A stretch of 64,000 nucleotides of DNA from Xylographa opegraphella. Taxonomy: Eukaryota. Numbering within the stretch: position 1 is the stretch's first letter; each line of letters begins with the position of its first letter. Location of the stretch: positions 496,001-560,000 of the forward strand of contig JALDZX010000005.1 in the NCBI GenBank assembly GCA_022813865.1, read 5' to 3'. This document shows positions 12,451-16,450 of this stretch, piece after piece. Below the pieces are notes generated by a model. The model was given only the letters and a program-made list of their open reading frames with translations, searched no databases and was not told where the DNA came from. Made by a program: the position numbers and the translations under genes.

Positions 12451-12799
12451 ATCTCAGGAAAATAATCAAGGAGCAGTGAAATTGACGTGTGCAAATAGGG
12501 TTTTGCCACGACGCTATTATCTGCGACGACAGTATAGCCATATGTCAGACTCTTCTCATTCTCCCTCTACTTCTCTCCTTATCGTTTGCTGAGCCATAGA
12601 ATCAGATAACCCATTAAGTCCTATTTCATCGCAAAAACTTAATCGCATTGACACTGATTTCTACTCCTCATGTAGTCTCACGAAATGCCTGATGGTTGGT
12701 AAAGACCGTTTGTCTATGCAATAGCCTCAGCTAGTCTGCTACATACTTCGAAACCGGTATCTTGGGATTGACACGCCTCCATTCGTTCACATTCGTTGT

Positions 12800-13830
<1,031 letters not shown>

Positions 13831-13885
13831 TTACGATGACCTGATCTATTTGTTAGAAGGAAACAAAGGGCTCGGAAGAGGGAAA

Positions 13886-14037
13886 GCATGATTCCATTGC
13901 GCAGGTATTATCCTGATCAAGTTGTGTCCGTATAATCTCAGAACGAACCGCAAAGCTTCCGTCGTCCACCATCTCTCCTTGCAGCACAAGGAGTTGGATG
14001 ATGGAGAGGGAGGATGCGGACGAACACCGGCTCATGC
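13886..14037 (-). promoter_or_regulatory. TPP riboswitch aptamer in the THI4 5' UTR intron
   Basis: The minus strand reads GCATGAGCCGGTG...CTGAGATTATACGG...AACTTGATCAGGATAATACCTGCG...TCATGC. P1 is GCATGA/TCATGC, P5 is CAGG/CCTG with a GATAATAC loop, and P3 is long. Branch point CTAAC and 3' splice sites lie at 13848-13841, just upstream of the THI4 ATG. Confidence 0.93.
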
Positions 14038-14360
14038 ACATTTTACCTGTGTACCTTGATCATTGTAGACAATGCCCGGAGAAGAGGTGATCATGTTTTC
14101 CATCTTAAGGGTGATGTACTGTTTTGAATTGTTGGGAGTAGCAGGCTGTTCTCGATCAGTATGTAGTCAGACATTGAAAGGGGGATTTTAAACAGTACGA
14201 TATAGTTCGATTAGCTCCAGGTAGAGTATTGAGTGGATGGGCGATGTCGACGAAGGACGATGAAAAATACTGAACGTGGGCGGGCCTTCAGCGTCTTTAT
14301 TGACTTTGGCCACTGCGGGGCATCTTCTGCCCCACCACGCATCCAGAACGATCCGCTATC

Positions 14361-14418
14361 AGTCCAATTCCGCAGAGTCCGTGGCTAGCAGTCCAATTCC
14401 GCAGAGTCCGTGGCTAGC
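14361..14418. repeat. Perfect 29-nt tandem duplication upstream of THI4
   Basis: AGTCCAATTCCGCAGAGTCCGTGGCTAGC occurs twice in tandem. Confidence 0.95.
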
Positions 14419-14641
14419 TCTCGTTCAGGCAAGTGTGACAAGCATGTCAAGCTGCAAAAGCGATGAGTAAAGCAAGTTCGGTCTGATATTGCATGCTAGC
14501 TTCGGATTCCACAGCACGACTGTACCCAATAGGTACGGTATCCTACCTACCTTGAGGCCGATCCACAGCCAAAGTTAACAAATTCACCATACCCATATCC
14601 AAGGCCGTCCATCCTTACAAGAATCGCCCTTCCCTGTCAAC

Positions 14642-16450
14642 TCACTGCGTACATCCCCCTTGGTTCTGTAAGCACCACTCCATCTGCACCATGCTAGCCG
14701 CAAACCCGAGATCGACTAGTCTTTCCCGCATCTCCGCCAGCCGTCTGGTCACGCCCTCATTCACGCCGCCCGGTCCCTTGGGCCCACTCCAAAGCACTTC
14801 CGCTGCCGCTGCCGCTCGTGGCCATATTTTCCCATCGAGGTTTGCGGGATCCGTGAGCGCTCCCCAAATCTGGATCTCCCCGCCCAGTAACAACTTTTGA
14901 TCACTTGCAGAGATGTTGACTCGAGGGTCGTACGAGTAAATCTGCCGCCAGTTGTTCATCGGACTACACCAATCGAGATACGGAGGCATGATGGGGGTCT
15001 GAGGATTTGTAGGAGAGGGATCGATAAATCCGCCGTATCCGCAATCTAGATACCAGTGCGCGGAGTCGCCAAAGATAACTTGGTATCCCAGTGCGACGAT
15101 TTCGGCCACAGAGGATGTCTTCCATGTCTGAATAATAGTAGAGTTTGTGGGAAGCGAGAGGTTCCAGATCAGCAGTGTCTCCTCCCATACGATGGGGGTG
15201 AGGCTTTGTGCCCTCACGAGACAGTGAATGTGGTCGATGAAGGACTGGAAGTAGGGTTGGATGATATCGGAAGAATTAGATTTGACGCTAGGATCCAGAG
15301 AGTAGACATTTGCATTCAATTCGTCACCCCCTGTGTGGAAGTAATCCGAGTATGGCGAAACACGCGGGAGGAGATCACCGTAAAGAGTACTCATGAAGGT
15401 GGTCACAGCCGAGTCGTTCAGTTTAAGCTGGCCCGTGGGCGGTTCGTTGCCGTAAGAGACCCATGGCTGCTCATTGAAGGCAGCGATCAGGTCAGGATAG
15501 GCGTAGGCTATAGCAGCCGTGTGTCCTGGCGAATCAATCTCCAAAAAGACTTGAATGCCACGAGAAAGGCCGTGACTCTGCACTCGTTCCAGATCAGCCA
15601 CGCTCCAGATCGAGCTATTTCTATATGCTCCTTTTGCTGCAAGATCCGGTAATGCAGGGACCTCCAACGGCCATGACTGGGCGTCTGTAGCATGCAGATG
15701 TAGACGATTGAACTTGTTGAAGGACATGGCGTTGATGGTACGCATGACATGGTGGGGGGAGATATAGTTCCTTGAAATGTCGAGGTTCAGTCCTCGATGC
15801 TCATAAACAGGGCTATCTTGAATATAGACAGGTACGTATGGGGTGTAGATCGAGCCATCGGGAGTGGCGTAAAAAAGCTGGGAGAGGGTATTTAATGCGT
15901 AGATTGCTCCATTTGTCGAGGCAACGCTGATCCACACACTACCATTTGCAGATATTTTTAGTGAGTAGGACTCATCAATGCTGGTTGTTGAGTTCCTTGG
16001 CAAGCTAGGGGATGTCACCGCAATAGTGATATGCTGAATACATCGTCTAAAAAGTGTTGTAGCATTTGTGGCTGGCTGAGGTATTGGGTACTCGGTTCCT
16101 CTTGGAAAGAACTTCCAAGGCACGAAAGCACTATTCATAGCATTCCACATGAATCGATTGAAAGCAGCGGTTAGAACTTCATCGGGAACGATTGAAGACT
16201 GATTGACTTGAGGAGCATCTCGACGATAAATCAGCCTAGACGGTAGTTAAAGATCGTCCTATGCCTGAAGTGGTGAACCGTACTCAAGAAGTTTCGTAGT
16301 CTCCCATACGCTCTTCGATTTGTAGTCAGCATGAACAGCACAAGAAAGCCATAAGGTTTCAGAGCCGTGCTGGTAGTGGGTCGGCTGAGGCCATACCGCA
16401 GTAGTGAAGCCAAGCAGATACAGCAGCGCAACAAAAAATACACGATGCAT
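14642..16450 (-). CDS. Secreted GH20 beta-N-acetylhexosaminidase, 2 exons
   Basis: Signal peptide followed by VWPQP; intron 16283..16236. Motifs DESYSL, HRGLNLDISRN, HLHATDAQSWP, EIDSPGH, catalytic HTGGDE, WYLDCG and WPRAAAAAE. Confidence 0.93.

Follow-up and report, generated by a model that had tools for sequence, protein, structure and literature searches.

A THI4-type TPP riboswitch with a long P3 and rare junction changes in the leader of a thiazole synthase gene of Xylographa opegraphella

Introduction

TPP riboswitches in front of THI4 (TPPsw-THI4) have been catalogued in many Pezizomycotina (PMC5882874), and 107 such sequences are reported in PMC11683625. In the NMT1 and THI4 riboswitches described by Li and Breaker (PMC3597705), P4-P5 nucleotides mask a 5' splice site in the absence of TPP, and the products formed at high TPP carry upstream open reading frames (uORFs), which block the main ORF. 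Mukherjee et al. (PMC5882874) call the architecture with a splice site masked by P4-P5 'Type I'. Contacts to TPP are made by the first G of CUGAGA together with a stacking G and A, by a G in the 5' strand of P2/P3 and by the CG that follows P5 (PMC8786325). These and the further statements on published systems refer to excerpts of the papers cited.

Two kinds of variation within the fungal aptamers are of importance here. Firstly, the mean fungal P3 is about 150 nt long, and the Rfam model RF00059 truncates or misses fungal aptamers with a P3 above about 60 nt (PMC11683625). Secondly, the aptamer of A. oryzae THI4 carries an extra A in the 3' strand of P4, just after the contact CG, and the aptamer of the A. 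oryzae nucleoside transporter has one additional C, located between P4 and P1. For both, molecular dynamics predicted an altered binding free energy, with modest effects (PMC8786325). Of the excerpts considered here, those of PMC8786325 deal with additional nucleotides in the P4 stem of fungal aptamers, and those of PMC3597705 and PMC11683625 do not.

In the following, we describe an aptamer of this kind in the window, i.e. the whole 64-kb stretch of X. opegraphella DNA that was analysed. In an initial annotation it had been presented as a TPP riboswitch upstream of THI4 with several non-canonical core positions.

Methods

Metagenome contigs were scanned with a loose pattern of the TPP core, which gave at least 120 loci. 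Because the pattern fixes CUGAGA, AACUUGA and UAA..C..GCG, the invariance of these motifs within the comparison set is a consequence of the scan, whereas the window's own letters are not so by construction. THI4-linked loci were picked by tblastn with the THI4 of the window, among the matches listed. The best identity of THI4 exon 1 to these loci was about 70%, or 80.5% over a partial match of 77 aa (L021); the metagenome loci did not include a close relative of the window, in both cases among the matches listed.

Ten non-redundant THI4-linked aptamers from metagenomes, with the window excluded, formed alignment A1; L021, whose aptamer measures 356 nt, was not included, nor were the near-duplicates L086 and L109. 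The covariance model R1 was built from A1 with a hand-set P1-P5 structure. Using R1, 28 fungal aptamers including the window were then aligned (alignment A2; L021, L086, L101 and L109 left out). For a census of the P4 tail, 117 metagenome sequences with a readable tail and a CUUG 5' strand were used, among the matches listed; one of them, L055, is not an aptamer, leaving 116.

Results

The aptamer is located in the leader of a thiazole synthase gene (Table 1). From its 3' end to the THI4 ATG at 13827 there are 59 nt on the same (minus) strand, and both exons match Pfam Thi4, which is the leader position that characterizes the fungal THI4-type TPP riboswitch.

Table 1. Features of the THI4 locus, in window coordinates; splice signals and the uORF are candidates.
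Feature	Position	Strand	Basis
TPP aptamer, P1 to P1, 152 nt	13886..14037	minus	R1 match, partial RF00059 match, fold
P1 GCAUGA/UCAUGC	14037-14032 / 13891-13886	minus	sequence
P2 CCG/CGG	14030-14028 / 13930-13928	minus	sequence
P2 3' strand CGG with A13927	13927..13930	minus	A13927 opposite G14031, a G.A mismatch
P3, 85 nt: base GUUCGU...UUCGUUC, then CCGCA/UGCGG and two nested distal helices	13941..14025	minus	fold and sequence
J3/2 CUGAGA, pyrimidine-binding turn	13936..13941	minus	sequence; contacts per PMC8786325
Pyrophosphate arm, canonical sequence: P4 5' strand CUUG, J4/5 AU, P5, L5 AUAAUA, J5/4 CG	13900..13921	minus	R1 and A2 alignments
P5 CAGG/CCUG	13915-13912 / 13905-13902	minus	sequence
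3' strand CGCAAUGGAA	13901-13892	minus	sequence
P4 3' strand and J4/1, CAAUGGAA; interrupted by U13896, one extra A before P1	13892..13899	minus	A2 insert columns
Anti-aptamer CCGGGCAUUGUCUACAAUGAUCAAGG, 26 nt, complementary to ACUUGAUCAGGAUAAUACCUGC of P4-L5-P5	14054..14079	minus	duplex energy
Candidate proximal 5' splice site CAAG|GU, at anti-aptamer end	GU 14054-14053	minus	sequence only
Second candidate GU	14046-14045	minus	sequence only
Candidate distal 5' splice site GUACAU; first uAUG 16 nt downstream	14114..14119	minus	sequence only; weak
Putative uORF: AUG 14103 (strong context), in-frame AUG 14094, stop UGA 14034-14032 if unspliced	14032..14103	minus	predicted
Pyrimidine tract	13885-13874	minus	sequence
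Candidate branch point CUAAC	13856-13852	minus	sequence; predicted
Candidate 3' splice site AG	13847-13846	minus	sequence; predicted
THI4 thiazole synthase gene, two exons	12800..13827	minus	ORFs and Pfam Thi4
THI4 exon 1	13827-13497	minus	Pfam Thi4 PF01946, E 5.8e-22
THI4 intron GUAUGC...CUGAC...UAG	13496-13444	minus	sequence
THI4 exon 2, including stop codon	13443-12800	minus	Pfam Thi4 PF01946, E 1.7e-78

Run on both strands of the window, R1 gave a single match over its full length (13884-14040, minus strand, 103.6 bits, E 8.7e-26). This score is just under the second-lowest of the training aptamers, which range from 87.8 to 155.5 bits, and is above those of all non-THI4 fungal aptamers (60.3-92.5 bits) and of the remaining, bacterial-type matches (20.6-58.5 bits). 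The aptamer is thus recognized as a THI4-type member by a THI4-linked model that was built without it. RF00059 found no match in the window at its gathering cut-off of 54.3 bits, which is a threshold of detection and not a structural feature. In E-value mode it aligned 13980-13876 only, ending inside P3 (35.7 bits, E 2.6e-5). The covariance search proposed in the initial annotation finds the TPP aptamer at a score below threshold. The same holds for the ten THI4-linked control aptamers, none of which reached 54.3 bits: nine had scores of 32.8-50.2 bits, and the tenth was not listed. Since all ten fall short, the low score is explained by the length of P3 and not by a defective core. In the case of short-P3 fungal aptamers, two of four passed the cut-off.

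Covariation points in the same direction. Across A2, 94.4% of the pair cells hold standard pairs and 14 of 27 pairs have changed on both sides, values that none of 500 shuffles reach and that compare with 24-43% pairing in slid controls, although the structure is somewhat favoured in this alignment because it was fitted to R1. Altogether, the element is a genuine fungal TPP riboswitch of the THI4 type, a kind that is already known. The initial annotation was right on this point, as the R1 and RF00059 matches and Pfam Thi4 agree, and each string that it quoted is found at its given place on the minus strand, reading from 14037 to 13886.

The full-length alignment to the structured model, in which every helix can form, confirms the P1-P5 three-way junction. 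The minimum free energy (MFE) fold of the aptamer reaches -59.7 kcal/mol (z -4.24; 1 of 200 shuffles as good) and recovers P1, P3, P5 and three base pairs of P4. All nested helices of P3 are part of it (CCGCA/UGCGG, UCCAUCAUC/GAUGGUGGA and CUCCUUG/CAAGGAG), and P2 and the base of P3 are replaced by a competing helix. With the canonical pairs enforced, the energy is -50.1 kcal/mol. The core motifs CUGAGA, CCGGUG, ACUUGAUC, AUAAUA and GCG match the family consensus at every letter.

Among the positions that had been considered non-canonical, two turned out to be ordinary. The first is the orientation of P5, which had been described as flipped: among the matches listed, 18 of the 28 aptamers of A2 have U-A as the second pair of P5 and 10 have A-U, the latter group having CAGG/CCUG like the window, and the same P5 is present in published transporter aptamers of Bipolaris and Pyrenophora (PMC5882874). 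This orientation is a common polymorphism. The second is the P3 of about 85 nt, which is normal for THI4 aptamers: nine of the ten A1 aptamers are 133-158 nt long and one is 110 nt, among the matches listed, compared to 152 nt in the window. The helix above the base of P3 shows changes on both sides at 6/6 pairs across the 28 aptamers. A much larger P3 of about 290 nt was observed in the THI4-linked aptamer L021:878-1233 (minus strand), to which R1 aligns only locally with 51.9 bits.

The remaining two positions, the short P2 and the longer P4 3' strand interrupted by a U, are real and rare. In P2, three pairs are present throughout the 28 aptamers of A2, either as CCG/CGG or in a covarying form. 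On the junction side, all 27 other aptamers have a fourth pair (A-U, G.U or G-C), whereas the window has G14031.A13927 there, i.e. G.A in 1/28, among the matches listed. In the case of P4, an uninterrupted NRRG follows directly after GCG in 104/117 census sequences and after one extra nucleotide in 12/117, and a strand interrupted like the CAA-U-G of the window occurs in none of the 116 aptamers (0/116), all among the matches listed. The A2 insert columns at this strand are filled by the window only. An additional nucleotide before P1 is less unusual: the window has an extra A there, and 9/28 aptamers of A2 have an extra nucleotide, among the matches listed.

In 185,579 prokaryotic species genomes, for which there is no aptamer denominator, one case of a P4 3' strand interrupted by a pyrimidine was found. 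It is the aptamer L121:120-205 of a Deinococcus MAG, with CAG-C-G opposite CCUG and the same geometry as in the window. A pattern specific for the variant had no matches in prokaryotic genome contigs, as expected for fungal DNA. For the G.A pair of P2 and the U-interrupted P4 strand with its extra A, the most likely account is variation that is tolerated; at most, these changes would tune the set-point.

To follow the aptamer into its leader, we considered the sequence upstream of P1, which reads CAAUGAUCAAG|GUACACAG|GUAAAAUGU. The duplex of the anti-aptamer with the P4-L5-P5 strand has an energy of -21.2 kcal/mol, compared to -9.9 +/- 2.3 kcal/mol for shuffles, of which 1 in 500 was as good (n=500, with mononucleotide content alone preserved). 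The complementarity is conserved: among the matches listed, an analogous pairing has p<=0.05 in eight of the ten THI4-linked loci (L020 at exactly 0.050), and is not significant in L051 (0.10) and L087 (0.40). The anti-aptamer helix is also part of the MFE fold of the whole predicted leader intron of 280 nt (-85.3 kcal/mol, z -3.19). Further elements recur in the THI4-linked loci, among the matches listed, namely GUA sites comparable to the candidate distal donor that precede uORFs, the uORFs themselves, and the order of pyrimidine tract, branch point and acceptor. If spliced at 14055|13845, the uORF of the window would cross the THI4 AUG out of frame; if unspliced, it would stop within P1.

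Several leaders also have short stretches in common with positions 14054-14119 of the window. In L040, L088, L054 and L066, the candidate distal donor is closely followed by UCACCC, and the anti-aptamer contains GGGCAUU(A/G)UC. Three of these loci (L040, L088 and L054) have the first AUG of the uORF within the candidate donor hexamer itself (GUAUGG or GUAUGU), so that use of this donor would remove the uAUG.

These elements can be arranged into a putative mechanism. At low TPP, the segment 14079-14054 would pair with the P4-L5-P5 strand and hide the proximal 5' splice site. With this donor hidden, splicing is proposed to proceed from a more distal donor (candidate at 14119), which would remove the upstream AUGs and leave a translatable THI4 mRNA. 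At high TPP, the aptamer would fold around its ligand and free the proximal donor. The resulting products would keep the strong-context uORF, which either stops in the intron or overlaps the THI4 start codon in another frame, and less THI4 would be made. The choice of splice sites, the function of the uORF, a presumed transcription start, the expected response to thiamine and the binding of TPP are all deduced from the sequence, and the best reading of them is a working TPP OFF-switch through alternative splicing.

In the predicted ligand-free state, a second helix could add to this. The canonical fold of the window aptamer is 9.6 kcal/mol above its MFE, the second-largest gap of the 28 aptamers in a nearest-neighbour calculation without tertiary or ligand energy; the others have gaps of 1.9-7.8 kcal/mol, and one sequence of poor quality has 15.1 kcal/mol, all among the matches listed. 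This large gap is due to a competitor consisting of the 8-bp helix GUGUUCGU/ACGGACAC (14027-14020 with 13931-13924) and of CCG/UGG (14030-14028 with 13896-13894). It is built from precisely those nucleotides that deviate, i.e. A13927, the ACAC of J2/4 and U13896-G13894. By this calculation, the aptamer of the window may fold less readily than its relatives. As the competitor and the anti-aptamer helix coexist in the predicted apo state, the two junction changes and the ACAC of J2/4 could jointly have created a lineage-specific competitor that acts as a second lock on the ligand-free state. We consider this an unlikely elaboration of the model; if true, the TPP threshold would be higher, or switching slower, than in canonical THI4 riboswitches.

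The initial annotation had also suggested that the changes next to the pyrophosphate-binding helix could alter affinity or ligand preference. On this view, the junction changes would markedly alter the affinity, or shift the preference to TMP or thiamine. Both changes are indeed rare (1/28 and 0/116, among the matches listed), the canonical fold is comparatively disfavoured, and molecular dynamics predicted a changed binding free energy for an extra A in P4 or an extra C between P4 and P1 (PMC8786325). However, the contact motifs are all unchanged in the window: CUGAGA in J3/2, the G of the GGUG strand, the CG of J5/4 and L5, with the J4/5-P5-L5-P5 arm, which holds the pyrophosphate, entirely of consensus sequence. 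The deviations are located at the far ends of P2 and P4, next to the junction and at a distance from the J4/5-J5/4 pocket. Variation in length is common at these spots (12/116 with an extra nucleotide after GCG and 9/28 before P1, among the matches listed). To our knowledge, there is also no precedent for a change of specificity in the TPP riboswitch class. With intact contacts and deviations at the junction ends, an altered preference finds no support and is unlikely, and we give the idea as a whole only a slim chance, while a shift in affinity, folding or set-point is possible.

A further explanation would be that the riboswitch is decaying, i.e. disabled by its junction mutations, with THI4 regulated otherwise in this lineage. 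This would fit with the presence of two destabilizing junction changes, with the strong competitor seen in the MFE fold and with the sub-threshold RF00059 score. On the other hand, the core motifs are all unchanged, the anti-aptamer has kept its complementarity, at a strength equal to that in relatives, and the candidate splice signals and putative uORF are intact as well. The low RF00059 score is common to all ten canonical THI4-linked controls, and a relative (X2, see below) has no indel in the 3' half of the aptamer despite about 11% divergence in the region. We therefore see decay as highly improbable and the riboswitch, as far as its sequence tells, as almost certainly functional.

Regarding the assembly, a Logan contig of run X1 is identical over 12700-14500 with a word depth of 162; X1 is possibly the source sample and would then not be independent support. 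Two relatives from the same study, X2 and X3, are about 11-12% diverged and cover the region. The X2 contig has only four gap letters, at 13875, 14019, 14119 and 14128, so that it has the same length as the window through 13886-13931, which is the 3' half of the aptamer. X3 also has four gap letters, which are unplaced. That the extra bases are assembly or sequencing errors, as the initial annotation had allowed for, has practically no probability given the identical X1 assembly at this depth (possibly of the same sample) and the equal length of X2, and no support for it was found in these contigs.

The surroundings of the riboswitch show some features of their own. Directly upstream of THI4, and on the same strand, there is an intron-less ORF of 502 aa with a glycoside hydrolase family 20 catalytic domain (beta-hexosaminidase-like; 14642-16150, minus strand). 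The spacer between both genes contains a 29-nt tandem unit repeated 2.2 times with 97% matches (14355-14418). X2 and X3 each have one 29-nt copy fewer at 14360, which indicates a recent duplication in the lineage of the window. Additionally, about 100 nt at 14176-14285 are swapped in both relatives for unalignable sequence of similar length between alignable flanks; this is a fast-evolving part of the presumed THI4 promoter or leader.

Discussion

Overall, we consider it very probable that the locus is explained by a long-P3 THI4-type TPP aptamer in a predicted intron of the thiazole synthase leader, which would work as a splicing OFF-switch and whose junction variation would be tolerated or at most tune the set-point. 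The designation as a riboswitch with several non-canonical core positions can be kept for the short P2 and the U-interrupted P4, and should be dropped for the orientation of P5 and the length of P3.

The interest of the element is mainly one of annotation, as THI4 riboswitches of the same type are catalogued in many fungi. It is another documented miss of RF00059 due to P3 length, and annotation by the Rfam cut-off would leave this regulator unmarked. Its three-way junction is weakened, with the fourth P2 pair absent and the P4 strand interrupted, and its pocket is untouched; as a variant that occurs in nature, it is also a possible test case for the relation between junction stability and TPP threshold in splicing riboswitches.

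Compared to known systems, the element is closest to TPPsw-THI4, e.g. A. oryzae thiA/THI4 and N. crassa THI4. Gene and leader position are the same, as are the start of P1/P2 with GCAUGA-R-CCGGUGUUCGU, the long P3, the UUCGUUCUGAGAUUAUACGG segment and the P4-P5 arm, and also the putative upstream uORF and a candidate donor of the GAUCAAG|GUA type that is complementary to P4. The window differs in the G.A of the fourth P2 pair, in one extra A before P1 and in the P4 3' strand, which is CAAUGG, interrupted by U13896, instead of (A)AAAGG.

In the case of N. crassa NMT1, the likeness concerns the mechanism proposed here: a leader intron, a proximal donor masked by P4-P5 without TPP, and uORFs that are kept when TPP is bound, giving an OFF switch (PMC3597705, PMC5882874), with the splice products of the window being predicted. 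NMT1 is a different gene, of the pyrimidine branch. Relative to the bacterial-type aptamer of RF00059, the three-way junction, the CUGAGA turn and the P4-P5 arm with its CG contact are the same, and the P3 of 85 nt is different. Finally, the A. oryzae THI4 and nucleoside-transporter aptamers, as described in PMC8786325, have extra nucleotides at the same two places. Each of them has one of the two extras and an uninterrupted paired run, whereas the window combines both and has its P4 strand split by a U.
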